Below, piece by piece: positions 7,190-37,270 of a stretch of 64,000 nucleotides of DNA (its first letter is position 1; the number at the start of each line of letters is the position of its first letter). Origin of the DNA: a virus (Duplodnaviria > Caudoviricetes); IMG/VR virus record IMGVR_UViG_3300028591_000070, positions 1 to 64,000 of that record; one strand, given 5' to 3'. The notes beneath the pieces were generated by a model. The model was not told where the DNA came from. It did not search any database and saw only the letters and a list, made by a program, of their open reading frames with translations. The translations under genes were made by a program, and so were the position numbers.

Positions 7190-8013
7190 TAATTAAAGAT
7201 GCTTTCTTTTGGTACCTCGAATTCCTCTCCTATAAAGAGAGGAATTTTTTCTTTATCAGCAAAAGCTTTAACTTTATTTAAATCCTTTTCATTTATTTTA
7301 TTTTTAGTAAAGTGAAATAAGAGTTCAAACTTTATTGGATATTTATTTCTATAGTTAATTACTTTTAATATATTTTTAAATACAACACTAAAGTCCGCAC
7401 CAGCTCTAATAGACTCTAATGATTTTTGAGATAGACCATCAAAATCGATTTCTAAGAAAATATGCTCACAAGTATCAACCAACTTTTGGAGTAAGTCTTC
7501 GGTAATCAGTGTTGCATTTGTTGTGATATTTATATTTTTACAATATTTATAAGTTTTCATAATATCTAAAACTTCATTTAGATAAATAAATCCTTCGCCC
7601 CAATCTGTGAGCCAAAGAGTTTTAAATTTATAATTTTTAAGTTTCTCTATAGTGTAGAAATATAATTGCTTTCTTTTTTCAGAGTCATGGTGACCACCAT
7701 ATCGAACATAACACATAGGACAATGTAAATTACATTCCCTACTAATAGCAACTCGTACTGTGCCTACTTCATAATTATTAGATTTCCATACATCTAAGCA
7801 TGTTTTTCCTGGATTCATAACATAGCAATCTACCGGTTTAGTGAAAACTATTTTATTTAAATAATCATAAAAATCATTTTCTGGCAATTCATGAAAATCT
7901 TTATAACTAATCTCTCCTAATGATTGTCCAAGTCTATCATAACAACAATGGGCAATTTTAATTATGTCTTCTTTTTCATTATAAAAAATATCTAAATTCG
8001 TAACACAGTACAT
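7186..8013 (-). CDS. radical SAM protein with N-terminal Cys cluster (orphan paralogue of the island genes)
   Basis: CNLHCPMC (Cx3Cx2C), WGEGF, TTNATL, DFDG..ESIRAGADF; N-terminal C...HCC...C. Confidence 0.88.
   Translation of the reverse strand: MYCVTNLDIFYNEKEDIIKIAHCCYDRLGQSLGEISYKDFHELPENDFYDYLNKIVFTKPVDCYVMNPGKTCLDVWKSNNYEVGTVRVAISRECNLHCPMCYVRYGGHHDSEKRKQLYFYTIEKLKNYKFKTLWLTDWGEGFIYLNEVLDIMKTYKYCKNINITTNATLITEDLLQKLVDTCEHIFLEIDFDGLSQKSLESIRAGADFSVVFKNILKVINYRNKYPIKFELLFHFTKNKINEKDLNKVKAFADKEKIPLFIGEEFEVPKESIFNY
7220..7250 (+). terminator. probable terminator of terL, embedded in the antisense gene
   Basis: AATTCCTCTC-7 nt-GAGAGGAATT followed by a T run. Confidence 0.55.
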
Positions 8014-19837: not shown

Positions 19838-19862
19838 GCTTAATCGCTTAAGTGCTTAGTGG

Positions 19863-19893
19863 AAAGGAGCTCTTTGGAGCTCCTTTTATTTTT
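19863..19893 (+). terminator. intrinsic terminator after the major capsid gene
   Basis: AAAGGAGCTC-TTTG-GAGCTCCTTTT. Confidence 0.85.
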
Positions 19894-19909
19894 TAAAACT
19901 AATTTATTT

Positions 19910-20791
19910 ATGTGTAATCAAGAAATAAAAGATGATTTTTTTATAAGATATGACCAGATTGACGATAAAATTTATTTAACTCATTGCTGTAGAATTGAGT
20001 CAAAAGCTTATTCATTAAAAGAATTAGAAGAACGTGGTCTTCAAAGTCTTATAGAAGAAACATCTAGTCTTGAACAGACTGTTAGACCAGGTAGTGAAAG
20101 CTTATGTAAAAAAACTTGTAAATATGCTTTACAACCTAAATCAATATTTATTCAAGCTATAGGACTATGTAATTTTCATTGTTTCCATTGCAGTTCTGGG
20201 CATGGGGATATTAAATGTACTTTACTTACAAAAAATCCTTTAAAAAATAAAAAAGTATTTTTTAATTTAATTGAGCATATTAAAAAATTAAATTATGATA
20301 CATCTATTATAGTAGATGGATCTGGAGAAATTTTTATATATTATAATACTCTATTAGATACTCTAAAGAGTTTAAAAAATACAAATATAAAACAAATTAC
20401 ATTTGAAACTAATGCATCTCTTTTAAATGAAGAAAAAATAAATACACTAAAAAAATTATCCCAAGAAACAAGTGTTGAGTATTTATTTAGAGTATCAATT
20501 GATGGTATTTCTAAAGAAACTCATGAAAAAGTTAGACCAACTGCGAATTATAATCAGTTAATAAAAGTATTTAAAATTCTTTCTGAGACATTTAATACTA
20601 CTATTAATTTTACTATAAAGCGTCCAAATGTAATGGATACACCTAAAGCAGAAGAATATTTTAAAAACTTATTCCCAAAAGCAAATTTATTTATTGAATA
20701 TGATTTTTTTGACAGTGACTTTTTGAAAGAGCAATTAAATGACGAAGAAGGAAAATATAGCTGTTTATTTATTCCTAGACTTCAAAATTAA
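19910..20791 (+). CDS. radical SAM protein with N-terminal Cys cluster
   Basis: CNFHCFHC, DGSGEIF, ETNASL, SIDG; start moved to MCNQ at 19910. Confidence 0.9.
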   Translation: MCNQEIKDDFFIRYDQIDDKIYLTHCCRIESKAYSLKELEERGLQSLIEETSSLEQTVRPGSESLCKKTCKYALQPKSIFIQAIGLCNFHCFHCSSGHGDIKCTLLTKNPLKNKKVFFNLIEHIKKLNYDTSIIVDGSGEIFIYYNTLLDTLKSLKNTNIKQITFETNASLLNEEKINTLKKLSQETSVEYLFRVSIDGISKETHEKVRPTANYNQLIKVFKILSETFNTTINFTIKRPNVMDTPKAEEYFKNLFPKANLFIEYDFFDSDFLKEQLNDEEGKYSCLFIPRLQN

Positions 20792-20805
20792 AACTAATTT
20801 ATTTA

Positions 20806-21660
20806 ATGAAAAATAATAATGGAGAAATTGCTCAAGACTGTGGGTTTTTATCAACTTTAAGTTGTTGTTTATGTAGACCTAATAAGGTTATGCTTAGGCC
20901 ATGTTGTTTTATACCCTTTCCTAAATGTAGTATTTTATCTTTAGATGATTTTTTTAATAAAACGTTTAAAGAATTGAGTGACTTAAGGCCATTCAATAAA
21001 GATGCTATTGACTGTAAATTTAAATGTAATTTAAAGCCAGTTGATACCTTAGAAATAAATTTTTTATACAAATGCAATCTTAAATGCCATCACTGCATAT
21101 CTGAAGCACCTTTAAATAAAGAAGACGTGAATATAACAAAGAATTATATATTAAAAATATTTGATAAGATAATAAATGAGGGTTATCATTTTAATAAAAT
21201 TCATTTAGATGGATCTGGAGAGATATTCATAATATATAAAGACTTAAAAGAATACTTAAAAAAGTTGTCTAAAGATATAGTTAATGAGATAATGTTTGCA
21301 ACTAATGCAACTTTGCTTACGGAAGACATAATTAAGGAATTATGTGAGATAAGTGAATCTACAGGAGTTAAATTTTCATTTGATATATCTTTAGATGGAA
21401 TCACGAAAGAAACATTTGAGGCAACTCGAGTAGGTGCTTCATTTGAAAAAGTTATAAACAATATTAAAAATTTAAGACCTCATTTTGAATATATGCTTTC
21501 ATTTACAGCAAAACGACCAAATATTACAGATAATCCTCATGATGTTATTTCTTTCTTTAAAGAACTAGGAGCAATATATCCAACCATAAGATATGATGCC
21601 TTAGATGAAAATATTAAACAAGAATATATGGAAAAATACCGTAACTTATTATCTTGCTAA
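20806..21660 (+). CDS. radical SAM protein with N-terminal Cys cluster
   Basis: CNLKCHHC, DGSGEIF, ATNATL, SLDGITKETFEATRVG. Confidence 0.9.
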   Translation: MKNNNGEIAQDCGFLSTLSCCLCRPNKVMLRPCCFIPFPKCSILSLDDFFNKTFKELSDLRPFNKDAIDCKFKCNLKPVDTLEINFLYKCNLKCHHCISEAPLNKEDVNITKNYILKIFDKIINEGYHFNKIHLDGSGEIFIIYKDLKEYLKKLSKDIVNEIMFATNATLLTEDIIKELCEISESTGVKFSFDISLDGITKETFEATRVGASFEKVINNIKNLRPHFEYMLSFTAKRPNITDNPHDVISFFKELGAIYPTIRYDALDENIKQEYMEKYRNLLSC

Positions 21661-21688
21661 GTTAATATTTTTTAAATGGAGATTTTTT

Positions 21689-22534
21689 ATGGCTTGTAAA
21701 GAACAGCATGATTTACAAATATTATATTATGACCACGATTTTGCTGAAGAAAAGTTTTCTATACAAATGTGTAGATGTTGTTTTCTTAAGCCCCAAGCTA
21801 TATTGTCATTAAAACAGTATAATGAGATTGATCCTATAGATTATATAGAATCTCATGATAATTCTAGAAAAGAATTTGTCCCAGCATGGGAAGGACATTG
21901 TGACCTAAAATGTAATTTAAACTCAAAAGTTAAAACTGTTTTATTAGGTTTATCTTATGCTTGTAATTTAAATTGCTATCATTGTTTTCATGATATTCAT
22001 AAAGATTTACCTTTATTAAAAGAAACTTATATCAATACCCTTTATAAATTAAAGGGTCATAATTTGGATGAAATCTCTCCAACAACAGCTGGAGAAGAAT
22101 TTATTTATTATAATGAGATTAGAGACTGGTTAAAGACATTAACTCCAAAAGATGTTAAAAAGATTAAGCATCAAACTAATCTCACTCTTTTAAATAGAGA
22201 AAAGATTTTAGAATTAAAACAAATTTCAGATGAAACAAAGGTAAAATATTTCTTTATGCCATCTATTGATGGCATAACTAAAGAGACATATGAGTCAACC
22301 CGTATTGGTGGAACATTTGAGGTTGTTATGCAGAATCTTAAAGACCTAGTTGATATTTTTGAACCACAAAATGTAAAGCCTTCTTTTACAATTAAGAAAA
22401 CTAATGTTTCAGATATCCAAAATATTATTAGCTTCTTTAGAAATAATTTTGGAGTAGAAGTTGACATTGGCGCAGATGTTTATGATGAATTTTGTAGAAC
22501 AGTTCAGCCAGCTGCTTATGAGGAATGTAAATAA
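21689..22534 (+). CDS. radical SAM protein with N-terminal Cys cluster
   Basis: CNLNCYHC, AGEEF, QTNL, SIDGITKETYESTRIG; start moved to MACKEQ at 21689 (GGAG SD). Confidence 0.9.
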   Translation: MACKEQHDLQILYYDHDFAEEKFSIQMCRCCFLKPQAILSLKQYNEIDPIDYIESHDNSRKEFVPAWEGHCDLKCNLNSKVKTVLLGLSYACNLNCYHCFHDIHKDLPLLKETYINTLYKLKGHNLDEISPTTAGEEFIYYNEIRDWLKTLTPKDVKKIKHQTNLTLLNREKILELKQISDETKVKYFFMPSIDGITKETYESTRIGGTFEVVMQNLKDLVDIFEPQNVKPSFTIKKTNVSDIQNIISFFRNNFGVEVDIGADVYDEFCRTVQPAAYEECK

Positions 22535-23946
22535 TGGAAGTATGCCCACAAGATAAAAGAGTTAGCCTTGAAATTAGATTTGATGATGATGGAAAAGTAA
22601 GTTTAGCGAGGTGCTGTTTTTTATATGCTTTTAGTCATCTCACTTTAGAGGAATATGGAAAGATTAAAGATATTATCGATTATGCAGAAAACTCTAAAAT
22701 AAATTATGCAAAAAGTTCAAATATCTGTGTAGCTAAATGTTATCTCGAAAAAAGAATTAAACAAGTAGATGTCGGTATTTCTCATGCATGTAATATGCAT
22801 TGTATGAATTGTTTTTTTAAAGAGCATAAAGACACACCTGAAATGAAGAAGGCCTATTTTGATACTCTTTATAAAATTAAAGGCCATCAATTAGACACTA
22901 TTATGATGAATAATGGTGGAGAAGTTTTTGTTTATTATGATGAAATAATTGAATATCTTAAGTCTCTTACTCCGAATGATACTCGTCAGGTAACTTTTGT
23001 AACAAATTTAGTTTTATTAAATGAGGAAAGATTTAAGGAACTAAAACAAATCAGCGAGGACACAGGAGTTACTTATTTCTTTTTGCCTTCTGTAGATGGT
23101 ATTAAAAAAGAATCATATGAGGCGATTCGTTTAGGTGGTAAGTTTGAAAAAATTACAGAAAATCTTCATTTATTAGCAGATGTTTTTGGTCCTCAACAAG
23201 CAGTAATTCTTTATACTATTAAAAAGCCAAATATAGACGAGACTGAAAATGTCGAAAAATATTTTATGGACACTTTCGGAATTAGATGTTCTATATCATT
23301 TGACGTTTATGATAAAGAGTGCGAAGAAAAATATAATTCCATTTTTAGAAAGAATTATACGAAAGAAGAAAAAGAAGTTTCTTCTTCTAAAGAAGAAAAA
23401 TTTAAGTTTATAGATTCTGGAAAAGCTATTGTGTATCCTCTCTCTATTATTTTAAATAAAAATCCTAAAGAACAGAATGTCAAGAAATTTGCAAATACCA
23501 ATTTTAACATTTATATTTTAACTAAAAGATGTCCAAAATGGATTAAAAAATATATGAATGTTTTTTTTATAAAGACACCTAAAAAACAGGTTTACTTTAA
23601 TATGAATCTTAAAATTTTTACGCCATATATTTTAATGGTTGATGATTTGTCAAAATTAAATATAGAGTGTCCATCAATTCTTGAATACTTTTTATCAAAA
23701 ACAAATCGTGATCTTATAAAGCTTAATAATATTGTTAAACAAGATAAGTCATTTATTACAAAAAGTGGTTCATTTTTTAGTTATAATCTAATTATTAAAA
23801 CCGACTTTTTTAGAAAAAATTTCTATAATCTTAATTTAAGAAAAAGTTTAATAAAAAACTTTAAGAATAAGGATAAAATAGAGGTGGAAATTCCAGAAAA
23901 AGTTGCTTTTTTGTCTGATAAAAAATTATATAAGGAATTTTACTAA
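22534..23946 (+). CDS. radical SAM protein with C-terminal extension (possibly degenerate GT2)
   Basis: CNMHCMNC, GGEVF, SVDG; extension contains YILMVDD. Confidence 0.85.
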   Translation: MEVCPQDKRVSLEIRFDDDGKVSLARCCFLYAFSHLTLEEYGKIKDIIDYAENSKINYAKSSNICVAKCYLEKRIKQVDVGISHACNMHCMNCFFKEHKDTPEMKKAYFDTLYKIKGHQLDTIMMNNGGEVFVYYDEIIEYLKSLTPNDTRQVTFVTNLVLLNEERFKELKQISEDTGVTYFFLPSVDGIKKESYEAIRLGGKFEKITENLHLLADVFGPQQAVILYTIKKPNIDETENVEKYFMDTFGIRCSISFDVYDKECEEKYNSIFRKNYTKEEKEVSSSKEEKFKFIDSGKAIVYPLSIILNKNPKEQNVKKFANTNFNIYILTKRCPKWIKKYMNVFFIKTPKKQVYFNMNLKIFTPYILMVDDLSKLNIECPSILEYFLSKTNRDLIKLNNIVKQDKSFITKSGSFFSYNLIIKTDFFRKNFYNLNLRKSLIKNFKNKDKIEVEIPEKVAFLSDKKLYKEFY

Positions 23947-25769
23947 TGGAATTTTGTTCGCAGTTAGATAGGTCTATGCTAGAACTTTCAGTTTTTTCAA
24001 AAGGAAGCGTTTCATTTTCTAGATGTTCCTACTTGAAAAGTTTAGCATACCTAAAATATGATGAAGTTAAAAATATTGACATTTTTAATTATGATTACAT
24101 TGATAATGCTTGTAAAAAGAGTTCTACATTATGCTCTGTAAAATGTAATCAACTTTCTAATAAATTTGAAAATATTAAAATTGGCATTTCAAGAGCTTGT
24201 AATTTTAACTGTTATCATTGTTTTAATAAAGAACATAAAGACAATTCTCAAGATAAGGAAATCTATTTTTATCTTTTACATGAGGTAAAAGGTCATCATT
24301 TAAATGCCTTAATTTTAGGTCATCAAGGAGAAGTTTTTGTTTATTATGATGAAATATTAAATTATTTAAAAACTTTAACAGTAGCTGATTTTAAACAAAT
24401 CATTTTTCAAACAAATTTAAGTTTATTAAGTGAGTCTCGCATAAAAGAATTAAAAGATGTTTCAGCATCAACAGGCATAGACTATGTATTTTTACCATCT
24501 ATAAATGGTATTACTGAAAAAACTTTTAAGGCTGTTACAAACAGTAATAATTTTAATTTTGTAATAGATAATTTAAAATTATTATTAACTTATTTTGGAC
24601 AAAAAAATACAAAAGTTACTTTCACTATAAAAGAACCAAATATAGATGATTTGCCTAATGTAAATACATTTTTTAAGAACTTAGGAATAGTTTTTTTAAA
24701 TATAAATTATGATATGTATGATACTCGTTGTAAAGATCTTTATTTAGCATTTTTAAATAATGGTCAGTTTAAATGTATTTATGATACTTCATGTTTGGAA
24801 AACACTATTAAAAGTCCTTATTTACTTAAATATAAGAAAAAGTCTGAAACAGATGATGGTGAAAAATTTCTTCTCTTAAAGGAATATAAAAAATCGCATC
24901 AAAATTCATCAATAAATGAAATTGTTACTACACCTAAAGAACAGCCAGTCGAAAAAGTTTTGATCGACCCAAACTATGAAGGCCTTTTCACTATAGGTAT
25001 TACTTGCCATAAAGAGCAAACACTTTCTCCAAGTTTGATTAATCTTATTACATCTAGTAATAATATAAAATTTCTCATATCAAATGATGCCGGAAAAAAT
25101 TATAATAAAGGTTTGAAGACTTTATTAAAAGATAATCCTAATGTTCAATTTATTTATGCTCAACCTGGTATAGAGAATAATAGACAAAACATTTTATCCC
25201 ATACTTTTAGTAAGTATTTATACATTGTAGATTATGATGATGAAATAAAAATTGATGAGTCTAAATTGCTCACATTCTTAGAAAAATGTAATGACGAAGT
25301 TATTATGGTAAATCCTTATGAGGATGGATCACAACCAGATTATATTTATCATAGTGATACTCAATTCTTTGTTGTTACTTGGGCTCAAATTTTTAGTACA
25401 AACTTTATAAGACAGGTTGGTGGATATATTCAAACTTGGAACTTTTATCATGAAGAATTTGGTACTAACGCTAATATTTTGGCAAATATTTATTCTAGAA
25501 ATATTGAATATCATGTGAGTCATATAAATGATAAAAATATTATTTATTACAATCATTTACTTTCTGACAGTATTGGCCATAATAGTATGCTTAAAAGAAG
25601 ATTTAAGGAAATTTATAATTTCGTGAAAAAAATACCAAAGAATGATAATATTACTTATAAAAAAGTTTTTCTAGAAATTTTTAAGGAAAGATTATCATTG
25701 ATGGGCCTTTCTGAAAAAAATTATGATCAGATAAATAGATTGATTATAAAACTTATAAGGAAGTTATAG
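23946..25769 (+). CDS. radical SAM / GT2-family glycosyltransferase fusion
   Basis: CNFNCYHC in the N-terminal half; C-terminal FTIGITC, ISNDA, GIENNRQ, YLYIVDYDD. Confidence 0.8.
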   Translation: MEFCSQLDRSMLELSVFSKGSVSFSRCSYLKSLAYLKYDEVKNIDIFNYDYIDNACKKSSTLCSVKCNQLSNKFENIKIGISRACNFNCYHCFNKEHKDNSQDKEIYFYLLHEVKGHHLNALILGHQGEVFVYYDEILNYLKTLTVADFKQIIFQTNLSLLSESRIKELKDVSASTGIDYVFLPSINGITEKTFKAVTNSNNFNFVIDNLKLLLTYFGQKNTKVTFTIKEPNIDDLPNVNTFFKNLGIVFLNINYDMYDTRCKDLYLAFLNNGQFKCIYDTSCLENTIKSPYLLKYKKKSETDDGEKFLLLKEYKKSHQNSSINEIVTTPKEQPVEKVLIDPNYEGLFTIGITCHKEQTLSPSLINLITSSNNIKFLISNDAGKNYNKGLKTLLKDNPNVQFIYAQPGIENNRQNILSHTFSKYLYIVDYDDEIKIDESKLLTFLEKCNDEVIMVNPYEDGSQPDYIYHSDTQFFVVTWAQIFSTNFIRQVGGYIQTWNFYHEEFGTNANILANIYSRNIEYHVSHINDKNIIYYNHLLSDSIGHNSMLKRRFKEIYNFVKKIPKNDNITYKKVFLEIFKERLSLMGLSEKNYDQINRLIIKLIRKL

Positions 25770-25770
25770 A

Positions 25771-26523
25771 ATGAAGTTTAATGTTGCTATTCCAAAACAT
25801 GCTTTAAATATAATAAAACAAGAATTTCCTCATGATAATATTATCATTTTTGATAAATCTTTATTTGAAGAATATTTTCCAGTTGATGATAATTTTAATT
25901 TCAATGAAGAACAACTTATGCTTTTAAGATTTATTCTTATTAAAAAATATAAGAATTTAATTTTTATCGACTATCCTAATATAACGATAAAGCCAGGTCT
26001 TCGAGAAGAAATAGTACAACTTAGTAAAACCAAAGATCAGTTTATTTATTTTAATGAAAAATATGATTTCTTTTATTCTAAATCATGCTTACCTGAAATA
26101 GAAGATGCTTTATTTAAGGTTGAAAACTTAAAAAGCCTATTGAGTATAAATAACTTTTCTTTATTTATGATCCCAAATACTAGAGAGTATAATTTTGAAA
26201 ATATTCTTTTTTATGGTGGCCTTAAATATTATATTGAGTTTTTCTTAAGATCAGAAAAAATTCTTCTTTTAAATTTAAATAAAACGCCTTTTGATTATAA
26301 AAAATATAGAAAACTGATTGAAGATGGAGTCTTTTTGTTAGGTTATAATGCTCTTCAATTTGAGACTGGAACTCCATATAATTCTAATAATTTATTACTT
26401 ATTGATTTTGATGTTGATAAGTTACCTATAAGATATGACCTTATAAAGATATATAAAAATATTGAAACTGAAAAAATGTATGTTGGATATTTTTCAGAAA
26501 TAACTTGTAAAGGAGTTTTATGA
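25771..26523 (+). CDS. hypothetical protein, weak glycosyltransferase-like pattern
   Basis: LLRFILIKKYKNLIFID resembles a degenerate GT32 motif; operon context. Confidence 0.45.
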   Translation: MKFNVAIPKHALNIIKQEFPHDNIIIFDKSLFEEYFPVDDNFNFNEEQLMLLRFILIKKYKNLIFIDYPNITIKPGLREEIVQLSKTKDQFIYFNEKYDFFYSKSCLPEIEDALFKVENLKSLLSINNFSLFMIPNTREYNFENILFYGGLKYYIEFFLRSEKILLLNLNKTPFDYKKYRKLIEDGVFLLGYNALQFETGTPYNSNNLLLIDFDVDKLPIRYDLIKIYKNIETEKMYVGYFSEITCKGVL

Positions 26524-28031
26524 AAAAAATAATTGAGAAAGAGGAATTTTCTAAAAAACTATCAAAATATCCTGATGAAATTATAAAATTATTTTCTCAT
26601 TTAATGAATGCTAATATTTATTTTTTTATAAATAAGGATAAGCTTGTTGTATTTAATGCTTATGGCACTCCTTCAAAACTTTATTCCACCAAAAGTAAGG
26701 TATTTACAAAAATAATAAAAAATAAAAGGCTAACATTTAATGATTTCAAAGAATTAAAATCTAAATTAGAAGAATTTGAAGTTAATTCATTTACTTTTCT
26801 TAGTAGAAAAGACTTTATTCAGAAACTAGAACCTAAAAATAAAATTACTGAGCTAAAAATTAATATAAGCAATTATTGTACACTAAATTGTGATTATTGC
26901 TTTCAAAAAGAAAAAAATACTAAGAGACTTACTTTTGAACAATGTAAAGAACATATTGATTCTTTTATGGAAACTTACAAATGTCAAAGTTTTTTATTGA
27001 CTTTAGCCATGACCTCAGAGCCATTTTTAGATTTTGAGTTGATAAAACAGATATATAAATATGTTCAAGAAAAGTGTCTTGATAAATTAAAGGCTTCTAC
27101 AACTAAACAAGATATTTATTCTTTTTTAGGAATATCTTCAGATGAAGAATATTTAAAGATATTAAATCAACGAGATTATTATAAGTCTAGTTTTAAAAAC
27201 ATGGATAAAAGATTTATAAGTGATTCTTTAGAAAAAGATTTAATAAATATTGATTTTATATCAGATGAAAATGAAATACAAAGAATAAATAAAGAAGTTA
27301 TTTATACGTCATTATCAGCTTCTAAAGATTTATATTATTTATGTTTGTGTACAAATGGAACAATTCGACCTTCTAAAGAAGACTTAGCATTTATTAAAAA
27401 GCTTTATTCATATGGACCTTTAAACTTAAGTTTTGATGGTGATTTTAAAGGAAATTCTCATAGAAAATATCCAAATGGAAAGCCATCCTATAATGATGTT
27501 TTAGAGAATATTCATTTTTTCCAAAAAAATGGCATAAAGTTAAAAATAAATTGTACTATTACTGAGGATAATAATGATTTTTTAAAACTAATAAAGTTTT
27601 TTCATAAAAATAATATTACAGATTTTAAGTTTAATCTCAAAAAAGGCGTATATTCAAAAAATCTTCTTAAAAATATAAGGAAATTCTATAAAGCTTATTA
27701 TACCCATAAGATTGATTCTCTTTATGGTTTTGAAAAATTTGGAAGTAATATTCATAAAGATTTTATTTATCTTATAAACTGTGAAGATTGTAATAGAAAA
27801 TGTATTGGCTTTGATAATAAAGAATATTATTGCGATTATTTCATCGGCAATAACTTAAATCTTCCTAAATCTGGAGTAAATGTTTTACGAAGAAATAAAT
27901 GTACAAATTGTCCTTTTGCTTTAATCTGTGGTGGAACTTGTCAAGCAATCACAAGGTCAACAAATATAGATGAAAAATCATGTGAAGTAAGACAAGAGAT
28001 ATTTAAACAGATTGTTTATTTCACAAGTTAA
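26520..28031 (+). CDS. radical SAM/SPASM maturase-like protein
   Basis: CTLNCDYC, SEPFL, CTNGT, SFDG, HRKYPNGKPSY; SPASM-like CTNCPFALICGGTC...C. Confidence 0.9.
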   Translation: MKKIIEKEEFSKKLSKYPDEIIKLFSHLMNANIYFFINKDKLVVFNAYGTPSKLYSTKSKVFTKIIKNKRLTFNDFKELKSKLEEFEVNSFTFLSRKDFIQKLEPKNKITELKINISNYCTLNCDYCFQKEKNTKRLTFEQCKEHIDSFMETYKCQSFLLTLAMTSEPFLDFELIKQIYKYVQEKCLDKLKASTTKQDIYSFLGISSDEEYLKILNQRDYYKSSFKNMDKRFISDSLEKDLINIDFISDENEIQRINKEVIYTSLSASKDLYYLCLCTNGTIRPSKEDLAFIKKLYSYGPLNLSFDGDFKGNSHRKYPNGKPSYNDVLENIHFFQKNGIKLKINCTITEDNNDFLKLIKFFHKNNITDFKFNLKKGVYSKNLLKNIRKFYKAYYTHKIDSLYGFEKFGSNIHKDFIYLINCEDCNRKCIGFDNKEYYCDYFIGNNLNLPKSGVNVLRRNKCTNCPFALICGGTCQAITRSTNIDEKSCEVRQEIFKQIVYFTS

Positions 28032-28067: not shown

Positions 28068-28976
28068 ATGAAACTTATTTTAGGAACAGTTGGTTCGCCT
28101 AATACGAAGTACGAAGATTTAGAAAAAATTTTCGATACAGTGTATGATCATTATGGAAAAGAAACTATTATTGATACTGGCCATGGTTATATGAAAAAAG
28201 ATGATGAAAATAATGCTGAAACATATATTGGCCGTTGGATTAAGGAAAGAGGTCTTACTCCAGAAAAAGATATTAAAGTTATCGATAAAGTTGGACTTTG
28301 GTATAATGAGAATAAAGATGGAGAGAGAAAAATTCAAGATCCATCTGAAATTTTAGATGAAATTTATCAGCGTCTTGGATTTATGCCTGAAACAATTTTA
28401 ATTCATGCTTTGAAAGATTCACAGTCAATCTCAGATGAACGCTATTTGGAGTTAGCTCAGCTTATTGAAGACACAGCTGACATTAAAGAATCTGGCTTTA
28501 GTGCTCACATGGAATTTGAGCCTCTTATTATGTGGCTTCAGAAACTTAAAGAATTTTCAAAACAGAAATATGCTATGCTTCCTTATTCAGTATTAAGTGA
28601 TATTCCTAATATTTGGCATGATGAACAAGGAAAACATTTTAGCCAGAATAAAAATATTTATGGCATAGATGTTTGGCCAAATTGTACAAAAGAAGGTTTT
28701 AAGGTTGCCAAAGATTTAGGCTATGATACAATTATTATGATGCCTCGCGAACAAGGAAAGATTACACAAATCAGCTATGCTCCTCTTTGGCAGAATTGGT
28801 GTTTTAGATATGCTTGTATGAATGAACATGCGGATTATATAGCAGAGTCATCTTTAAATCCAGTGCATATTAAAGAAGATATTGCCATTGCAGAAGGCGA
28901 ATGGTATCATCAAACAAATCGTGAAGGTTTAAGAGACAAAATTATTGCTGAGTCAGAAGAACTTGGAAATTGGTAA
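28068..28976 (+). CDS. aldo/keto reductase family protein
   Basis: LILGT, IDTGHGY, ETYIG, ILIH, GFSAH. Confidence 0.75.
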   Translation: MKLILGTVGSPNTKYEDLEKIFDTVYDHYGKETIIDTGHGYMKKDDENNAETYIGRWIKERGLTPEKDIKVIDKVGLWYNENKDGERKIQDPSEILDEIYQRLGFMPETILIHALKDSQSISDERYLELAQLIEDTADIKESGFSAHMEFEPLIMWLQKLKEFSKQKYAMLPYSVLSDIPNIWHDEQGKHFSQNKNIYGIDVWPNCTKEGFKVAKDLGYDTIIMMPREQGKITQISYAPLWQNWCFRYACMNEHADYIAESSLNPVHIKEDIAIAEGEWYHQTNREGLRDKIIAESEELGNW

Positions 28977-28988
28977 GGAGAATATAGA

Positions 28989-30212
28989 ATGGCAGAAATT
29001 AGTATTATAGCATATGGTGATGGCGTTTGTTTAAATGACCACGATAGAAATCCTTACGGAAATGAAAAATATGGTCTTTGTGCTTATTGTTCAGGCTCTA
29101 ATAACTGGAATAAATCAAATGCGGTTGCTTCTCAGATTAAAGAATGGGCTGATTGGGATAAATTGGAAAAATCTCTAGAAGAAAATCCTCTTATTCAAAA
29201 AGCGATTAAAAATAAAGAAATTATTACTTGGAATCTTTGGGGTGCAAACCCTGATACTCCTATTCCAATTGCAGATGGATTAGATAGTCCTTTAGAAAGA
29301 TCTCAAGCAATCATAGATTTCTGTGAAGATTTTTCTGGTAGGCATGACATTTTTAGACAGTATTTCGTTTCTACTAATGGATTTTGGCTTACAGATAAAA
29401 GAGTTCAAGATTTTTATACAAAAAATCCTAAAATGCATCTTCAATTATCTTATGATGGTCTTGGTAATTATGTAAGACAAGGTCCATTTGACCCACTTTG
29501 GGATAAAGAAACCGGTCCTATTTTAGCTGATTTTGCAAAAAAAGGCATTTTTGACTTAATAAATATTACAATGACTCGTCAAAATAATTCTTTATTGGCA
29601 AACGTTGCCCTCATAAATAAATGGAGATCTGATAATGGGCTTATGAACCTTGAACATTTTAGTGTTAAGACAAATCATATTAATGATAGTCCATATTGTG
29701 ATCATTGGAATTTTAAAGGTAAATCATTAAATACTTACATTAATGAACTTGAGCGTTTGTTTATTATGACAAAATATGGAAATATTTCTTCCAACCCATA
29801 TTGGAAACCATATACTGATTATTTTATGAATCAACTGGTTAGATGGGACCCTTATTCTGGAGATAACTCATGTGGAATGTATTCTATTTTTGTTAATGGG
29901 CAAGATCCAAATGACCCTATTAAACATAGGTCTCAGAATTATAACTGGTCTATTAATACTTTAGGAGAATATGTTGTTTGTCAATTGATTGATAAACCAA
30001 CTGACGTGCCAAATCCACATTTAACTCGTCCAGCTATGTGTGAGAAATGTGAATATGGTTGGATGAATGAATGCCATCCTTGTCCAGACAATGTTAATAA
30101 TCCAGACTGTCAGTATAAAAAAGAATATGCTCGTTTGATGCTTCGTATGAAACTTATGAATGACATTATTCAAGTAGGTGGGCAGCATCAATGTAATTGC
30201 TCAAATAAATAA
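28989..30212 (+). CDS. radical SAM/SPASM protein with atypical Cx16Cx2C motif
   Basis: C-LNDHDRNPYGNEKYGL-CAYC, LWGANP, STNG, QLSYDG; C-terminal CG...CQL...CEKC..ECHPC..DC. Confidence 0.8.
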   Translation: MAEISIIAYGDGVCLNDHDRNPYGNEKYGLCAYCSGSNNWNKSNAVASQIKEWADWDKLEKSLEENPLIQKAIKNKEIITWNLWGANPDTPIPIADGLDSPLERSQAIIDFCEDFSGRHDIFRQYFVSTNGFWLTDKRVQDFYTKNPKMHLQLSYDGLGNYVRQGPFDPLWDKETGPILADFAKKGIFDLINITMTRQNNSLLANVALINKWRSDNGLMNLEHFSVKTNHINDSPYCDHWNFKGKSLNTYINELERLFIMTKYGNISSNPYWKPYTDYFMNQLVRWDPYSGDNSCGMYSIFVNGQDPNDPIKHRSQNYNWSINTLGEYVVCQLIDKPTDVPNPHLTRPAMCEKCEYGWMNECHPCPDNVNNPDCQYKKEYARLMLRMKLMNDIIQVGGQHQCNCSNK

Positions 30213-30225
30213 TACTAATTAAATT

Positions 30226-31995
30226 ATGGAAATGCATAAATCATCCTTTGAAGTTCCTTCAAAGGATTATAAAAAACAAATTACTAATGGAATATATTCT
30301 CTAAAAGTTGAGGCTGGTTCTCTTAATATTGTTGATGCTCTTAAAAGCTTTATTGATTATGATAAAGTAGCCATTGTTACTAGGCATAGTATAAGAGGTG
30401 AAGATTATTCTGCTTCAGGACCATTAACTGATTTAGGAAAAACTGCAGCAGAAAATATTGGTAAGCAATTAAAAGCTGAATTTGGTGAAAGGTCTATTGC
30501 ATTATATTCAACTGATACTGTAAGAACTAGAGATACAGCATCTCTTATAAATAAAGGTTGGAACGATGCTGAGACTTCCGAGATTGATACCTCAAAAGAT
30601 ATTATTAATGGAGGTTATTTTGAAGTTTCTGGTTCATGGCCAGAAATTACTGAAAGTGTACAAACTCCAGAATTTAAAAATAAAGTTGAAACATGGAAAT
30701 CTAATTTTATAAGTGAAATGCCTGATGGCTTATCATGGTGGGTAAGCCATGACTCATTATTAGTTCCACTTGTTTATAATATTTCTGATTTTAATCCTGA
30801 GAAATATAAACAGCTTTATAAGTTTGAATATTTACCATGGGTTTCACCTTTATCTGGAATTATTATTGCCATTAAAAACAATGATATTCAGATTAAGGTT
30901 ATTAGCTGTTTAGAAACAGGTTTTATTAGTAGTAATGACTATAATCATGACTATACAGAAGATGTTGAAAATCCAGAAGAATTACGCAAAAAAAATTTAG
31001 TAGCAACAACATTTACTCATCCAAAAGTTGATAATACTTATAAGTCAAAACCAGATTTATCTTATATATTTGATCAATCTGATACAAATAGTAATCCACT
31101 TTATTGTGATTCCACTTATGCAGGTTGTGGTCAATGTGTATCTTGCCAGAATTGCGATAATGGATGTCAAACATCTTGTCAAGGGTGTGATGGATGTAAC
31201 TCTTGTCAAACATGCTTCTCATGTCAAGCAAAGTGTCAGACTGAAGGATATTCTTGGACAGTATATAAAGAAAAAATTACTGAATGTACATCATGTGTAT
31301 CTTGTCGAGATTGTGTAGGTGGTTATACTAAAAAATACGTCACTGATTGTAATCCTTGTAATTCATGCTATGGTCAACAACAAGTTAAAACTTGGTCTCA
31401 GTGTTCTGGATGTCAATGGGGATGTACAGGCTGTAACTTATGCAATGGCTGTAATGATGGTTGTACTTCTAATGGCCAAGGCTGTTCTTCTTGCCATAAT
31501 AGTTGTACAGGTTGTAGAGCTTGTTATGGCTGTCGTTCTGGATGTACAGCAGGAACAAGTCATACCCAGTCTTGTTCATATTATTATTCTGGTGGATGTA
31601 GTCCTTGTAATTCTTGTGATCAATGTACTTCTTGTAATTCTTGTACTGGAAATTGTTGGGGATGTGATGGGTGTACAACTTGTACAGCATGTCAAAGTTG
31701 TGCTAGTTGTCAAACTTGTACAGCTTCTTGTCAGTCTACCTGCTATAATGGTTGTATAAGTTGTAATTCTCAGACAACTGTAACAGAATGGAGATGTGAT
31801 GGTTGTACTCAAGAACAACCTGTTACAAGATGTGTTCCAGGATGCGAAACTACTTGTTATGCCGGATGTACAAATACATATGATAATAGATGGAAAAGAT
31901 ATAATTGTTCAGATAAATGTATGACTTGTGTGGGTATCGATGCTTATGCATGTACTTCTTGTTATCAAAAAAATTATGATGTGGAGTATAAATAA
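30226..31995 (+). CDS. histidine phosphatase domain fused to a long CxxC/CxxxC-repeat region
   Basis: TRHS...LTDLG...STDTVRTRDTA...VSHD; ~64 Cys (hand count) in the C-terminal ~290 aa. Confidence 0.8.
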   Translation: MEMHKSSFEVPSKDYKKQITNGIYSLKVEAGSLNIVDALKSFIDYDKVAIVTRHSIRGEDYSASGPLTDLGKTAAENIGKQLKAEFGERSIALYSTDTVRTRDTASLINKGWNDAETSEIDTSKDIINGGYFEVSGSWPEITESVQTPEFKNKVETWKSNFISEMPDGLSWWVSHDSLLVPLVYNISDFNPEKYKQLYKFEYLPWVSPLSGIIIAIKNNDIQIKVISCLETGFISSNDYNHDYTEDVENPEELRKKNLVATTFTHPKVDNTYKSKPDLSYIFDQSDTNSNPLYCDSTYAGCGQCVSCQNCDNGCQTSCQGCDGCNSCQTCFSCQAKCQTEGYSWTVYKEKITECTSCVSCRDCVGGYTKKYVTDCNPCNSCYGQQQVKTWSQCSGCQWGCTGCNLCNGCNDGCTSNGQGCSSCHNSCTGCRACYGCRSGCTAGTSHTQSCSYYYSGGCSPCNSCDQCTSCNSCTGNCWGCDGCTTCTACQSCASCQTCTASCQSTCYNGCISCNSQTTVTEWRCDGCTQEQPVTRCVPGCETTCYAGCTNTYDNRWKRYNCSDKCMTCVGIDAYACTSCYQKNYDVEYK

Positions 31996-33564
31996 ATGGA
32001 ATTACTAAAAGATGAACAAATAACCTTAAATATAGATGGTTTCGTTATTTCACAGAACCTTCATAATAAAGCCACAGCAACAAGTTTATTTGGTATTACT
32101 AATAAAGATAACTTAAATATAGGCCATGACGATAGAACATGGGTTTTAGAGAAAGATATTATTTGTGATACTTGTAATAGATGTGTAGGATGCCAAACTT
32201 GCGTAAGCTGTAATAACTGTGTTGATACAGTAGGATGTAATAATAATTGTCAAGGATGCACTGGAAGTTGTACAGGCTGTGCTAGTGGCTGCTATGATAC
32301 TTGCTTTGGTGATTGTTATACCTGTCAAGATTGCCAAGCAGGATGTACTTCTTGTAATGCTTGTACAGCAGGATGCGATGGTGGATGTCAGACAGAATGT
32401 TATGTCTGTGTAAGTTGCGATGGCTGTGTCGGCTGTAATGGTGATTGCGTTGGTTGTTTTAATGGATGTCAGGAATCTTGTCAAAACTGTACTGGCTGCG
32501 CTAGCTGTACTGCTTGTGTATCTTGTCAAACAGGCTGTCAAACAGGTTGCCATGATAATTGTCTAGGAGGATGTACTACTAGTACTACTGGTGCTTGTAC
32601 CACAATATGTCAAACACACTGTCAAACTTGTACAGGATGTGATAATAGCTGCCATGGTGGATGTACATTATGTAATGGCTGTACAAGTGGATGTACTACT
32701 AGCTGCCATATAGGTTGTCAAACAGGTTGTACAACTGCATGCCAGATGTGTACGGGTGATTCTTGCGCTAATTGCAATAGTTGTAATAGCTGTACAAGCT
32801 ATAATGGTGGTTGTCCTTCTGGATATACTATATGTAGTCCTTGTGTAGGAACATATAGCTGTGGTAGTAGCCAAGGTTCAGCATGTTCACCATGTTATGG
32901 ATCTAATCACGGTGGTCAAGATACCCCAGAAGATCCAGGGGAAGAACCAAAACAAAAAGAAGTAGACATTAATTGCTTAAACAGAGCCACAGGTGGAACT
33001 GAAGCAGGACTAAATACAGGTTGTCAAACAGCACCATATAATGCAGCAGATATAAAAGAGCCACCAGAGTATAAAGGCCCACCAGCTTGGAATCAATTAT
33101 CAGATCACGATAAAGTAGATAAATATAAAGAGCTTGGATATAAAGTAAATATTAAAGATACACCTGAAGATATTACTGGTATGGAGCTTAAAGCGCTTGA
33201 AGACCTATTCCCAGGAGCAGACCATGTTCAAACTGAATGGGACGAAGAAAGTGGAACCTTTACGGAATATGTGTATGATGAGGAAGGTAATTTATTAGGA
33301 ACTGCTAAATCAAAAGATCGAGGTGAATCATTTGAAGCTGAGTCGGTGCCTAATAAAAAAGGTAATAAAAAGAAAACTACAGGCATTAAAGTAAACAAAG
33401 GTGCAAAACCCCCTACAACTGATATGTCTAAAAAGCACACTAAAGAATATGATAGTGAAGGTAAACCAACAGGAAAAGAAACAGCAGCTGATGGATCAAC
33501 AGAAGTTGAAAACCCAGAAACAGGAGAAAAAGTAAATACTGGTCCTCAACCAGCTGGTTGTTAA
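31996..33564 (+). CDS. giant CxxC/CxxxC-repeat protein (putative radical SAM modification target)
   Basis: ~55 aa Cys-free N-terminus, ~65 Cys (hand count) in ~245 aa, then a charged low-complexity tail ending in Cys. Confidence 0.8.
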   Translation: MELLKDEQITLNIDGFVISQNLHNKATATSLFGITNKDNLNIGHDDRTWVLEKDIICDTCNRCVGCQTCVSCNNCVDTVGCNNNCQGCTGSCTGCASGCYDTCFGDCYTCQDCQAGCTSCNACTAGCDGGCQTECYVCVSCDGCVGCNGDCVGCFNGCQESCQNCTGCASCTACVSCQTGCQTGCHDNCLGGCTTSTTGACTTICQTHCQTCTGCDNSCHGGCTLCNGCTSGCTTSCHIGCQTGCTTACQMCTGDSCANCNSCNSCTSYNGGCPSGYTICSPCVGTYSCGSSQGSACSPCYGSNHGGQDTPEDPGEEPKQKEVDINCLNRATGGTEAGLNTGCQTAPYNAADIKEPPEYKGPPAWNQLSDHDKVDKYKELGYKVNIKDTPEDITGMELKALEDLFPGADHVQTEWDEESGTFTEYVYDEEGNLLGTAKSKDRGESFEAESVPNKKGNKKKTTGIKVNKGAKPPTTDMSKKHTKEYDSEGKPTGKETAADGSTEVENPETGEKVNTGPQPAGC

Positions 33565-33600: not shown

Positions 33601-34701
33601 TTATTTTTCCATAAACTTATTACGTTCTATTTTAACATCCAAATCAGATGTTACCAATTCATAATCTTCAGTAATTCTCCAAATATTTTTCATAAAATCT
33701 ATTACATTATTTCCACCAAGACCTCCAACCCAAACATCTGGAAGATGGCCAATACCTTCTGAGAAATTTGAGTCAGGAATAAAATCTCTAGTAGAGAGTA
33801 CCAAACTGAATTTATCTTTTTCAAAAACTATTTGTTTTGGGTCAATTCCTTCTAATAAACCATTTGTATTACTACCAATATAAATAGTTCTTTTATCATC
33901 TTTAAGAGCATAAATAAGACGTTCAGCAGCAGAACCAGTATTGTCAATAAGAACTATAATTTTCTTATATTTTGATTTTTTTATCTTTTCAGCAAAAGCT
34001 AATGCTGGATTTACTTTACCACCAGGGGCATTTAAGAGGTCGATTATCAAATATTCTTTTTTTGGAAGAGATAACTTATCAAATGTATCATTTTTAATAT
34101 GACTATTAAGTTTAATTACATAGGATTTTTTTGTTTCTAATATTGAAATTCCTTTACTAATTTCTTCCATTCCTACAAAATTTAATTTTGCGCCGGAATT
34201 ACCATTCATCCAATCATCACCTTTCCAATTAAACCAACTCCACTCACCAACTCTCCAATCTTTTTCACCATTACTTGGATAATAAAACATAGTTTCATTT
34301 TCAACATAACCTTTTTTCAACAATTCATCTTTTGTGCCATATTCATTTGAAAACTTTACCCATTTGCGATAACTTGGAGACTCAAGCCATTTTCCATTCT
34401 CATCTTTAATACTCAAACCATGATGATTATCAAGTGGCAACCAACCTTTCTCATCATTTGGTCTAAAAAATGACTCAATATATTCAAACATCTCACCATC
34501 AATTTTCATATTATCCAACTGATGAACATCAAAACCTCTCTCCACCATCTCAGGATAAAAAACATAATCAACCAAAGCTAACTCAATCTTTTTAATATCC
34601 TCATCAATATCATCTCTAATTACAGGATGAAGGAGGTCTTCTCCACAAACATTAAAAAGTGCGAAAATTACAAAAAATAAACTAATAATAAATTTCTTCA
34701 T
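33601..34701 (-). CDS. secreted S41-family (tail-specific) peptidase-like protein
   Basis: Signal peptide MKKFIISLFFVIFALF; LIIDL..APGG, TGSAAE, IGSNTNG, EGIGHLPD; start moved to 34701 (GAGG SD). Confidence 0.75.
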   Translation of the reverse strand: MKKFIISLFFVIFALFNVCGEDLLHPVIRDDIDEDIKKIELALVDYVFYPEMVERGFDVHQLDNMKIDGEMFEYIESFFRPNDEKGWLPLDNHHGLSIKDENGKWLESPSYRKWVKFSNEYGTKDELLKKGYVENETMFYYPSNGEKDWRVGEWSWFNWKGDDWMNGNSGAKLNFVGMEEISKGISILETKKSYVIKLNSHIKNDTFDKLSLPKKEYLIIDLLNAPGGKVNPALAFAEKIKKSKYKKIIVLIDNTGSAAERLIYALKDDKRTIYIGSNTNGLLEGIDPKQIVFEKDKFSLVLSTRDFIPDSNFSEGIGHLPDVWVGGLGGNNVIDFMKNIWRITEDYELVTSDLDVKIERNKFMEK

Positions 34702-34720
34702 ATCTATTACCTCTATATAG

Positions 34721-34749
34721 AATATACTTATTATATTAAATTTATTCAA
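34721..34749 (-). promoter_or_regulatory. sigma70-like promoter
   Basis: TTGAAT-N17-TATATT on the - strand. Confidence 0.65.
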
Positions 34750-35724: not shown

Positions 35725-36189
35725 ATGGAAATACAGAAGCAATTTTTACGAAAAGGTAGAGATTATAATAGATCTGGAGCTCAGTTAAGACCTAAACTGA
35801 TTGGTTTATATGAATTAAAAGATAATCTACCTAATATGCTTGCTTCCAATGTGGTTTCACATCAAGATGAAGGCATTACAACTGTTTTTCATTTTGTAGT
35901 AGATGGCAAAGGAAATGTAATTCAAGCTGTTCCTTTAAATGAAAAAGCAAGATTTATGCCAACCTACTATATGAATGAATTGGTTTCTATATTAGTGGTT
36001 CCATCTAATGTAGATGGAAGTTTATCAGATAAACAGTATGAAAGTTTAGTCGAGCTTGTAAAATATATTAAAGCTACTTGTGGATTAAAGGACATTAGAG
36101 AATTAAATATGAGATGTTTTACAGATCCTGATAAATTTAATGAGTTTATATTAGAAACTGAAAATATTAATACAAATGTTCCAAAATAA
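35725..36189 (+). CDS. Amidase_2/PGRP-like protein, apparently catalytically degenerate
   Basis: HFVVDGKGNVIQAVPLNEKA, SDKQYESLVELV; expected Zn-ligand His residues appear absent. Confidence 0.6.
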   Translation: MEIQKQFLRKGRDYNRSGAQLRPKLIGLYELKDNLPNMLASNVVSHQDEGITTVFHFVVDGKGNVIQAVPLNEKARFMPTYYMNELVSILVVPSNVDGSLSDKQYESLVELVKYIKATCGLKDIRELNMRCFTDPDKFNEFILETENINTNVPK

Positions 36190-37270
36190 ATACGACTTTT
36201 TAATAGTAGGCTCAGGTTTATATGGGCTTACTTGGAATAGGCTAGCACAAGAAAAAGGTAAAAGTTGTCTTATCATAGAAAAAAGAGATAGAATTGGCGG
36301 AAATATAATTACAGAAAACTGGAAAGGAATTCCCATTCATAAATATGGCCCACACATTTTCCATACAAATAACAAAGAAGTTTGGGATTTTGTAAATAAA
36401 AATTGTAAGATTGAATCATATATAAATCAACCTGTTGCTTGGAATAAAAAACTTTATAATTTACCATTTAATATGAATACATTTTATCAAGTCTTTGATA
36501 CAAAAAACATTGATAAAATAAAAGAAATAATTCAAAGAGATATAAAAGAGTCGGGAATTAAAAATCCGAAAAATCTTGAAGAACAAGCTATTTCGATGGT
36601 TGGAACTACCATTTATGAGATACTTATAAAGCATTATACTGAAAAACAATGGGGAAGACCTTGTTCTGAATTACCAGCAGGTATAATTAAAAGATTACCT
36701 CTTAGATGGACTTTTGATAATAATTATTTCAATGCAGATTACCAAGGAATGCCACATTATAATGAATTGGTAGAGAATCTTTCAAAGGGTGCTGATATTT
36801 TAGTTAATACAGATTATTTTTTAGATAAAGAAAAGTTTAATTCATTAGCTGACCGAATAATTTATACTGGACCAATTGATGAGTTTTTTAATTATAAATA
36901 TGGAAAATTAGATTGGCGAACTGTAAGATGGGAAAATGAAGAGAAACATTGCGATAATTTTCTTGGTGCAGCTATAATGAATTTTACTGGGCCTGAAGAA
37001 AAATATACAAGAATTATTGAACATAGACATTTTTATAAAGACCAAAGTAAATTTCCAAAAGAAACCTTAATTTCATATGAATATTCAGAAGAATATGAAG
37101 CTGGAAAAGAAAAATTTTATCCAATAAATGATGAAAAAAATAATAAAATTTTAAGTCTATATCAGAAAGAAATAAGTGATAAATTTATTTTTGGTGGAAG
37201 ATTGGCAGAGTACAAGTATTATGATATGGATAAAGTTATTGAAAAATGTTTTAATGACTTTAAGGCATAA
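36176..37270 (+). CDS. glf: UDP-galactopyranose mutase
   Basis: IVGSGLYG, RIGGN, HKYGPHIFHT, YTEKQWG, NNYF, YTGPID, TRIIEH, GRLAEYKYYDMD. Confidence 0.97.
   Translation: MFQNKYDFLIVGSGLYGLTWNRLAQEKGKSCLIIEKRDRIGGNIITENWKGIPIHKYGPHIFHTNNKEVWDFVNKNCKIESYINQPVAWNKKLYNLPFNMNTFYQVFDTKNIDKIKEIIQRDIKESGIKNPKNLEEQAISMVGTTIYEILIKHYTEKQWGRPCSELPAGIIKRLPLRWTFDNNYFNADYQGMPHYNELVENLSKGADILVNTDYFLDKEKFNSLADRIIYTGPIDEFFNYKYGKLDWRTVRWENEEKHCDNFLGAAIMNFTGPEEKYTRIIEHRHFYKDQSKFPKETLISYEYSEEYEAGKEKFYPINDEKNNKILSLYQKEISDKFIFGGRLAEYKYYDMDKVIEKCFNDFKA

Follow-up and report, generated by a model that had tools for sequence, protein, structure and literature searches.

A 65-cysteine array protein encoded with radical-SAM/SPASM genes in a 386-kb gut phage: a candidate thioether-stapled shaft

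The first 64 kb of the 385,934-bp virus record IMGVR_UViG_3300028591_000070 (the window, which is the whole stretch of DNA that was analyzed; G+C content of ~31%) encode P0002, a protein of 522 residues with a ladder of 65 cysteines in its middle part. From the observed anatomy of P0002, its pattern of conservation, the homologies of the enzymes encoded upstream of it, and the recurrent linkage of such genes in phages, we infer that the cysteines are modified, that the modification consists of thioether bridges, that a radical S-adenosylmethionine (rSAM) enzyme of the phage installs them, and that the product belongs to the virion. The interpretation that we favor, with moderate confidence, is that P0002 is the thioether-stapled shaft of a virion-associated protein. 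A more specific version, in which two rSAM/SPASM enzymes of the phage, one of them with an unprecedented Cx16Cx2C motif, staple the ladder into a thioether-bridged rod of a particle-associated fiber, is put forward tentatively.

According to the proposed mechanism, P0002 would be made in the host cytoplasm as a chain composed of an N-terminal docking or recognition module, the ladder, a linker, and a variable beta-sheet end domain. The ladder would be the substrate of the phage rSAM/SPASM enzymes P0049 and/or P0047, which would turn its thiols into intramolecular thioether bridges of the sactionine or ranthionine type to nearby residues. The stapling would convert a structureless chain rich in Gly, Ser, and Thr into a shaft that resists reduction and proteases, and the shaft would hold the variable end domain off the particle, in the manner of a fiber or decoration protein. 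Bridges of this type are known from the rSAM/SPASM enzyme CrpC, which puts ranthionines in CrpA, a Cys-rich protein of 28.8 kDa with a conserved N-terminus of 47 residues (PMC13692751).

P0002 is divided into the following parts:
31996..33564, plus strand: P0002, whole open reading frame of 522 residues, with the stop codon at 33562-33564
31996..32163, plus strand: N-terminal module, residues 1-56, Cys-free, delimited by conservation and a homologue search
32164..32436, plus strand: Cys array part 1, residues 57-147, with 27 Cys, characterized by invariant Cys and its dN/dS ratio
32437..32895, plus strand: Cys array part 2, residues 148-300, with 38 Cys, the length of which varies among homologues
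33028..33561, plus strand: C-terminal beta-sheet domain, residues ~345-522, with a Gly-Cys end, predicted by AlphaFold2

The translation of 32164-32895 on the plus strand is stop-free and contains 65 Cys in 244 residues (26.6%), compared with an average of 1.6% in the long open reading frames of the window, the two array proteins excluded. The regular cysteine cadence that a sequence-only reading had described is thus real and well in excess of chance, and the ~55 Cys-free residues that it had placed before the array were counted as 56. Over the whole 522 residues, consecutive cysteines are spaced by three (32 times), four (25 times), or, within the array, five to eight positions (seven times); CC and CxC pairs are lacking. 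The units have the form C-[Q/T/N/V/D]-(x)-[G/S]. The residue after each array cysteine always bears a side chain (Q, T, N, V, D, H, or Y), and the residue preceding the next cysteine is mainly G or S; this asymmetry was counted as fitting the thioether interpretation. Six Tyr, two Phe, and four His are included in the array. Tandem Repeats Finder detected only short weak repeats in the array region (two to six copies of 9-18 bp, with 63-100% match), so that the cadence does not stem from repeated DNA.

The array is followed by 222 residues rich in Glu, Lys, Asp, Gly, and Thr, the last of which is Cys522. The charged composition and the terminal cysteine agree with the sequence-only reading, but the segment is not the loose follower that had been suggested: a short linker connects the array to a domain that AlphaFold2 predicts to be folded (residues ~345-515, about 12 beta-strands, pLDDT (predicted local distance difference test) values of 80-92). 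The matches of this domain in the PDB are weak, with Z-scores of up to 6.4, and include OspA-type single-layer sheets, a domain of GtfA, and a baseplate protein of phage phi812. Searches with Foldseek and VIA returned only weak beta-meander matches.

Homologues of P0002 were found in metagenomes (n = 43), and those of their contigs that were read belong to syntenic phages of ~300-390 kb. Among 15 homologues, the mean column identity is 89% for the N-terminal module and 44% for the C-terminal domain. In part 1 of the array, column identity reaches 100% at the Cys and 84% at the non-Cys positions, and in part 2 the values are 88% and 48%, with insertions and deletions that correspond to whole Cys units. 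The strong conservation of the non-Cys positions in part 1 fits recognition by an enzyme site by site. All 15 closer homologues retain Gly521 and Cys522, which distant ones lack. In the homologue from contig L041, spacing four occurs 39 times and spacing three 19 times.

The homologue from contig L002 is 49% identical to P0002 overall and retains all 27 Cys of residues 57-147, ten of which show switches between the codons TGT and TGC. In the same segment dS is 1.83 and dN is 0.11, giving a dN/dS ratio of 0.06, a sign of strong purifying selection; the ratio for the N-terminal module is 0.15. Since the cysteines are kept despite the codon switches, and the dN/dS ratio is so low, the plus frame is the coding one, with the pattern maintained in the protein, as had been supposed from the lack of DNA repeats. 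On the strength of the dN/dS ratio, two minus-strand open reading frames (32146-32553 and 32668-32874) were regarded as its shadows.

Residues 1-62 were searched against 1.84 billion proteins, and in every real homologue the module directly precedes a Cys array. The proteins that contain the module have 97-545 residues, with C-termini that are either dissimilar or absent. Matches with multiple copies of the module in proteins of 1053 and 361 residues were rejected as relatives, because they are translations of tandem-repeat (satellite) DNA with inflated scores. Because the N-terminal module is always fused to the array while the C-termini vary, the conserved unit consists of the module and the ladder, and the distal part is variable. 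A conserved N-terminus combined with a variable C-terminus is the usual layout of phage fiber proteins. The constant fusion of the module to an array is as compatible with a role in recognition or docking as with a leader. P0002 has no match in GenBank phages in a tblastn search and no usable match in the ESM Atlas, and its sequence profile matches only KCMF1 among PDB sequences, marginally (E-value of 0.078).

Two genes upstream of P0002 encode the candidate modifying enzymes:
26520..28031, plus strand: P0049, 503 residues, N-terminal extension, radical SAM domain, and SPASM domain, of the peptide-maturase type, identified by motifs and profile matches
28989..30212, plus strand: P0047, 407 residues, probable divergent rSAM/SPASM-fold protein with a Cx16Cx2C motif, identified by a fold match and synteny

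P0049 begins with an N-terminal extension of ~108 residues, which is followed by a CxxxCxxC motif and a Phe, an insertion of ~85 residues, the motifs TNG and SxDG, and a SPASM segment with the pattern Cx2Cx5Cx3C. Cysteines 120, 124, and 127, together with cysteines 421, 438, 461, 464, 470, 474, and 488, are invariant in ten homologues, and P0049 thus has both the CxxxCxxC motif and the seven-Cys SPASM domain by which maturases of thioether-containing peptides that are synthesized ribosomally and modified post-translationally (RiPPs) are recognized. The best relative of known structure found with the P0049 family profile is the thioether synthase CteB (E-value of 7.6e-14). The two proteins are colinear from the end of the CteB recognition domain to the end of the SPASM domain, and the last ~45 residues of the N-terminal extension of P0049 align with residues 54-97 of CteB. 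The best NCBIfam matches of P0049 are PapB (62.7 bits) and TIGR04115 (58.8 bits), both far under the cut-off, which is 350 bits for TIGR04115. Alignment of P0049 to phage enzymes of the TIGR04115 type by hhalign has a probability of 98.5% (E-value of 1.7e-15), and P0049 is the only rSAM protein of the window with BLASTP similarity to them. A complex prediction of P0049 with residues 1-100 of P0002 gave a score of 0.00, which, in a run without controls, is uninformative either way.

P0047 is conserved together with the arrays. Its cysteines 14, 31, and 34, which form the Cx16Cx2C motif, and the C-terminal Cys cluster are invariant. Comparison of its predicted structure with 48,161 PDB chains identified only four with Z-scores of at least 8, namely anSME (4K36, Z 9.8), ChlB (9GM3, 9.2), CteB (5WGG, 8.8), and TigE (8VPO, 8.0), all of which are rSAM/SPASM modifiers of proteins or peptides. 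Alignment of P0047 to P0049 by hhalign is weak (E-value of 0.002) and places the TNG, SxDG, and Cys-cluster regions colinearly. We read P0047 as a probable divergent rSAM/SPASM-fold protein. Its gene is followed by those of the two array proteins, P0003 and P0002, and the order of P0047, first array, and second array is kept in the window and in contigs L002, L004, L006, L041, and the minimal L043; counted over the relatives, P0047 lies immediately ahead of both array genes in six of seven. P0047 is 77-91% identical among relatives, compared with identities down to 41-55% for P0002 homologues. In L043 the array proteins have only 143 and 172 residues and P0047 is still 77% identical; in L006, from the most distant relative read, P0047 is 82% identical and the neighboring array proteins are ~40% identical. 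Judged by gene order and identity, P0047 is linked to the arrays more tightly than P0049. P0047 is among the slowest-evolving genes seen here, though it belongs to no database family.

A pattern scan of IMG/VR for Cys arrays identified 18 further phage contigs from five lineages. Their array proteins have 235-381 residues with 30-68 Cys at similar spacing, and the array is joined to an unrelated domain of ~115 residues. This domain bears a motif of the Y.GSA(Y/W)DF type (L009:8215-10420, L017:9680-12495, L024, L007, L008), and the phages are smaller, with contigs of 16-108 kb. In all five lineages an rSAM protein of 451-518 residues is encoded within ~1 kb of the array gene, and the small array phages carry one or two rSAM matches each. 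TIGR04115 is the best family for all six of the array-adjoining enzymes (245-534 bits), four of which score above the 350-bit cut-off. In both of the two lineages tested, the pair of array and rSAM genes is located at the end of the tail module: one has the order tape measure, baseplate, tail fiber, rSAM, array, and the other tail fibers, array, rSAM, endolysin. Spacings of three and four are also mixed in the phage arrays that adjoin TIGR04115-type enzymes, where spacing three accounts for 6-35%, and the arrays of L007 and L024, used as positive controls, match TIGR04114 above its 20-bit cut-off. The connection of the array to rSAM/SPASM enzymes, which had been suspected at the outset, is supported by P0049 in the operon, by the predicted fold of P0047, and by the enzymes with TIGR04115 as the best family in these five other lineages.

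Several observations weigh against a stapled shaft. The array of P0002 matches neither TIGR04114 nor TIGR04117 at E-values of up to 10, and the search against models of CXXX-repeat targets that the sequence-only reading had called for was thus negative. The flanks preceding the arrays of P0002 and P0003 differ, and one rule of leader recognition therefore cannot serve both arrays. No fixed acceptor residue follows the array cysteines, and AlphaFold2 predicts no structure for the array (pLDDT of ~25). P0049 is encoded 4 kb upstream of P0002 with two genes between, and in L006 P0049 and the small rSAM proteins are missing between the capsid gene and P0046; it is the absence of P0049 that counts here. 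P0047 has no match in Pfam, NCBIfam, or PDB sequences, and has neither a canonical CxxxCxxC motif nor a PF04055 match. Its model is mediocre, with a predicted template modeling score of 0.59, and the protein is possibly inactive; L042 has a gene unlike P0047 immediately upstream of its arrays. The putative membership of P0002 in the virion draws on the position behind the capsid gene and on the other phages only, and the rest of the window contains replication genes, not tail genes.

The main alternative is that the array binds metal, with the thiolates as ligands, as a very long metallothionein-like protein or a necklace of Fe-S or Zn sites. The clusters would structure a rod, store metal, or carry electrons for the Fe-S enzymes of the phage. 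We consider this unlikely, although the proportion of cysteine, the small polar spacers, and the many CxxC pairs would suit it. Free thiols in the cytoplasm readily bind Zn or Fe. The ~17 radical-SAM enzymes of the genome all need Fe-S clusters, and AlphaFold2, which was run without cofactors, does not fold the array. The authors of the CrpA study proposed a metal role for that protein, the gene cluster of which is upregulated during growth on pyrite (PMC13692751). Against metal binding, the array lacks the CC and CxC pairs typical of metallothioneins, and P0002 shares neither the small size nor the scarcity of aromatic residues and His by which these are recognized. Searches of Pfam and NCBIfam returned no metallothionein, ferredoxin, or zinc-finger family; a Pfam search at E-values of up to 10 left the arrays unmatched, but it missed the control arrays too and is therefore powerless. 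The conservation of the non-Cys positions in part 1 is far beyond the needs of metal ligation alone, and a dedicated rSAM enzyme of the peptide-maturase type is encoded beside the arrays in all five lineages of small phages.

It is less probable still that the array forms an unmodified disulfide ladder or inter-subunit network that is oxidized outside the cell, and that the rSAM enzymes serve other purposes such as glycan chemistry. Two neighboring small rSAM proteins have C-terminal extensions that were read as GT2-like, the gene glf is nearby, and the small rSAM paralogues form a second cluster with no array near. Because this cluster is far from the arrays, most of the rSAM proteins of the phage are not array-specific. 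P0049, in contrast, is of the peptide-maturase type and not of the sugar type, and the linkage of TIGR04115-type enzymes to arrays in other phages would be left needing an explanation. The samples with this DNA are labeled as animal guts, an anoxic habitat in which disulfides are presumably unreliable and oxygen-sensitive rSAM enzymes presumably work.

The leader, core, and follower layout of the sequence-only reading is not supported in that form, since the C-terminal part of P0002 is predicted to be a folded domain and is variable among relatives, the array of P0003 has another N-terminal flank, and in one phage lineage the non-Cys domain comes behind the array. That P0002 is a true RiPP precursor, the 56-residue leader of which is cleaved off and the modified array or pieces of which are diffusible and bioactive, is very improbable: the leader-then-core-like arrangement, the maturase architecture of P0049 with its N-terminal extension, and the S41 peptidase encoded next door would fit it, but the protein has 522 residues with a folded C-terminal domain in place of a short precursor, no transporter or immunity gene was seen among the annotated neighbors, the arrays of other phages are located in tail-fiber modules, and one of their lineages has array and non-Cys domain the other way round (L024, in which the array is N-terminal and the ~115-residue domain C-terminal).

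The genes that surround those of P0002 and the two candidate enzymes include:
17987-19837, plus strand: Gp23-like major capsid protein, at the start of the plus-strand run
28068..28976, plus strand: P0046, 302 residues, without a family match, placed by synteny
30226..31995, plus strand: P0003, the upstream paralogous array protein, 589 residues, with 64 Cys in residues 294-579
33601..34749, minus strand: S41-type peptidase, convergent with P0002 (PF03572, 2.3e-9)

The plus-strand run comprises, in order, the capsid gene, five small rSAM paralogues, a protein of 250 residues, P0049, P0046, P0047, P0003, and P0002. P0002 is the last gene of the run, and it abuts the stop codon of P0003 with zero spacer. 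P0002 and P0003 are the only two Cys-array open reading frames of the whole genome. The N-terminal part of P0003 has a weak match to histidine phosphatases (PF00300, E-value of 4.8e-4, below the cut-off), and among its relatives there are short forms of 143-247 residues that lack this part and share with P0003 the YIF(D/S)...(P)xYC junction that leads into the array. P0046 adjoins P0047 in every relative with a readable upstream stretch. It has no useful match in Pfam, NCBIfam, or PDB sequences, and a language-model search points to aldo/keto reductases as look-alikes (score of 0.92), which we treat as a lead only. The S41-type (C-terminal processing) peptidase gene keeps its position in L002, L004, L006, and L042. 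Its vicinity and the Gly-Cys end of P0002, invariant in closer homologues, invite the idea of C-terminal processing, and a role of the peptidase in the processing of P0002 is a conjecture.

The whole genome contains 19 PF04055 matches, which correspond to ~17 radical-SAM genes, an unusually large complement for a virus. In the window, rSAM genes are located at 7186-8013 and 19859-25769. Nine radical-SAM paralogues of ~280 residues are encoded back to back at positions 238731-246372 of the record, with no Cys-array gene near; the small ~280-residue paralogues were rejected as array-specific enzymes because of this cluster, which lies away from the arrays at 238.7-246.4 kb. The last two small paralogues of the window (22534-25769) have C-terminal extensions, of which that of 23946-25769 is GT2-like (PF00535, E-value of 1.1e-4), and glf (36176-37270) and an amidase_2 gene are located downstream. 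Together, the extensions, glf, and the amidase_2 gene suggest that this late region also encodes a glycan-related pathway of its own. A motif ACTAA(A/T/C)(T/A) is present ~6-30 nucleotides before the starts at 16089, 20806, 28068, 30226, 34768, 35725, and 38021 (the last on the minus strand), and is absent from the 60 nucleotides before the capsid start at 17987 and before P0002; it may be a promoter or an initiation signal.

No close relative of the window was found among GenBank phages. The sequencing runs that hold DNA of the window are labeled as metagenomes of sheep and other animal guts. Contigs from one sheep-gut metatranscriptome library match the window exactly at 31106-32020, which spans the junction of P0003 and P0002, and at 32237-32753 and 32735-33472. 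The enzyme genes upstream are covered only by metatranscriptome pieces of 150-190 bp. The matches are a hint of expression, and carry-over of DNA is possible. One gut DNA run contains high-depth contigs of a relative that break off at 30245 and begin again at 34233; a gap in coverage proves nothing, and we drew no conclusion from it.

Among known systems, the CXXX-repeat system, which comprises a TIGR04115 maturase and TIGR04114 and TIGR04117 targets, shares with the module of P0002 long arrays of cysteines with small polar spacers encoded near an rSAM/SPASM maturase. It differs in that P0049 scores 58.8 bits against a cut-off of 350, and in that P0002, P0003, and four relatives miss the target models. 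In the CXXX system every fourth residue is a cysteine, whereas spacing three dominates in P0002 (32 versus 25), which is a difference of degree. P0002 is, moreover, a protein of 522 residues with two extra domains, and it has a second rSAM-like protein, P0047, as its tighter-linked partner. The module of P0002 is located behind a capsid gene, in a phage of 386 kb, and not behind a tail-fiber gene. TIGR04115 is known from database curation, and searches of the full-text literature found neither experimental work on it nor a paper on Cys arrays with rSAM enzymes in phages.

The Crp system of Methanococcus voltae (TIGR04463) resembles that of P0002 in having a protein-sized Cys-rich substrate with a conserved N-terminal region and Cys motifs, a second substrate gene, and an rSAM/SPASM enzyme (PMC13692751). 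The ranthionine bridges of CrpA were demonstrated experimentally, and the AlphaFold models of CrpA and of the P0002 array are both of low confidence. CrpA is built of ten 17-residue repeats with the motif C-x-x-Q/D and has far fewer Cys than P0002. CrpA and CrpB share their N-terminus, unlike P0002 and P0003, and the host of the Crp system is an archaeon, not a phage. TIGR04463 was not among the matches of P0049 at E-values of up to 0.01. By curated cut-offs, P0002 and P0049 are outside the CXXX and Crp families, yet they are clearly of that kind.

CteB, which produces thermocellin, and PapB, which produces freyrasin, have the same elements as P0049, namely an N-terminal extension, a CxxxCxxC motif followed by Phe, the TNG and SxDG motifs, and a SPASM domain with seven Cys. 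They act on peptides that are a few dozen residues long and have one to six bridges and a cleaved leader, and P0049 differs from them by the ~85-residue insertion in the rSAM core. The best structural match of P0047, anSME (4K36, 256 residues aligned), likewise has no N-terminal recognition domain, and its target is a Cys (or Ser) within an entire protein. P0047 has no detectable sequence similarity to it and contains Cx16Cx2C in place of CxxxCxxC; neither the conversion of Cys to formylglycine nor a site of the CxPxR type is indicated for P0047.

Particular to the phage described here are the three-part protein of 522 residues, the pairing of two array proteins, the dominance of spacing three, the divergent P0049, the non-canonical and highly conserved P0047, the location after the capsid gene in a phage genome of 386 kb, and the presence of ~17 rSAM genes. 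Stapling by thioethers that rSAM enzymes form is known for small antibiotic-like peptides and, since 2026, for one archaeal protein. If phages staple 65-Cys ladders within large modular proteins, no larger RiPP-like modification would be known, and viruses would have a new way to make parts that are rigid, redox-proof, and protease-resistant without folding or disulfides. Such parts would constitute a structural material of a new class among viruses, cross-linked covalently and suited to guts that are anoxic and rich in proteases, and could serve as a natural scaffold for protein materials with many cross-links. They would also open to experiment the uncharacterized TIGR04114/04115 systems and what may be a non-canonical radical-SAM enzyme.

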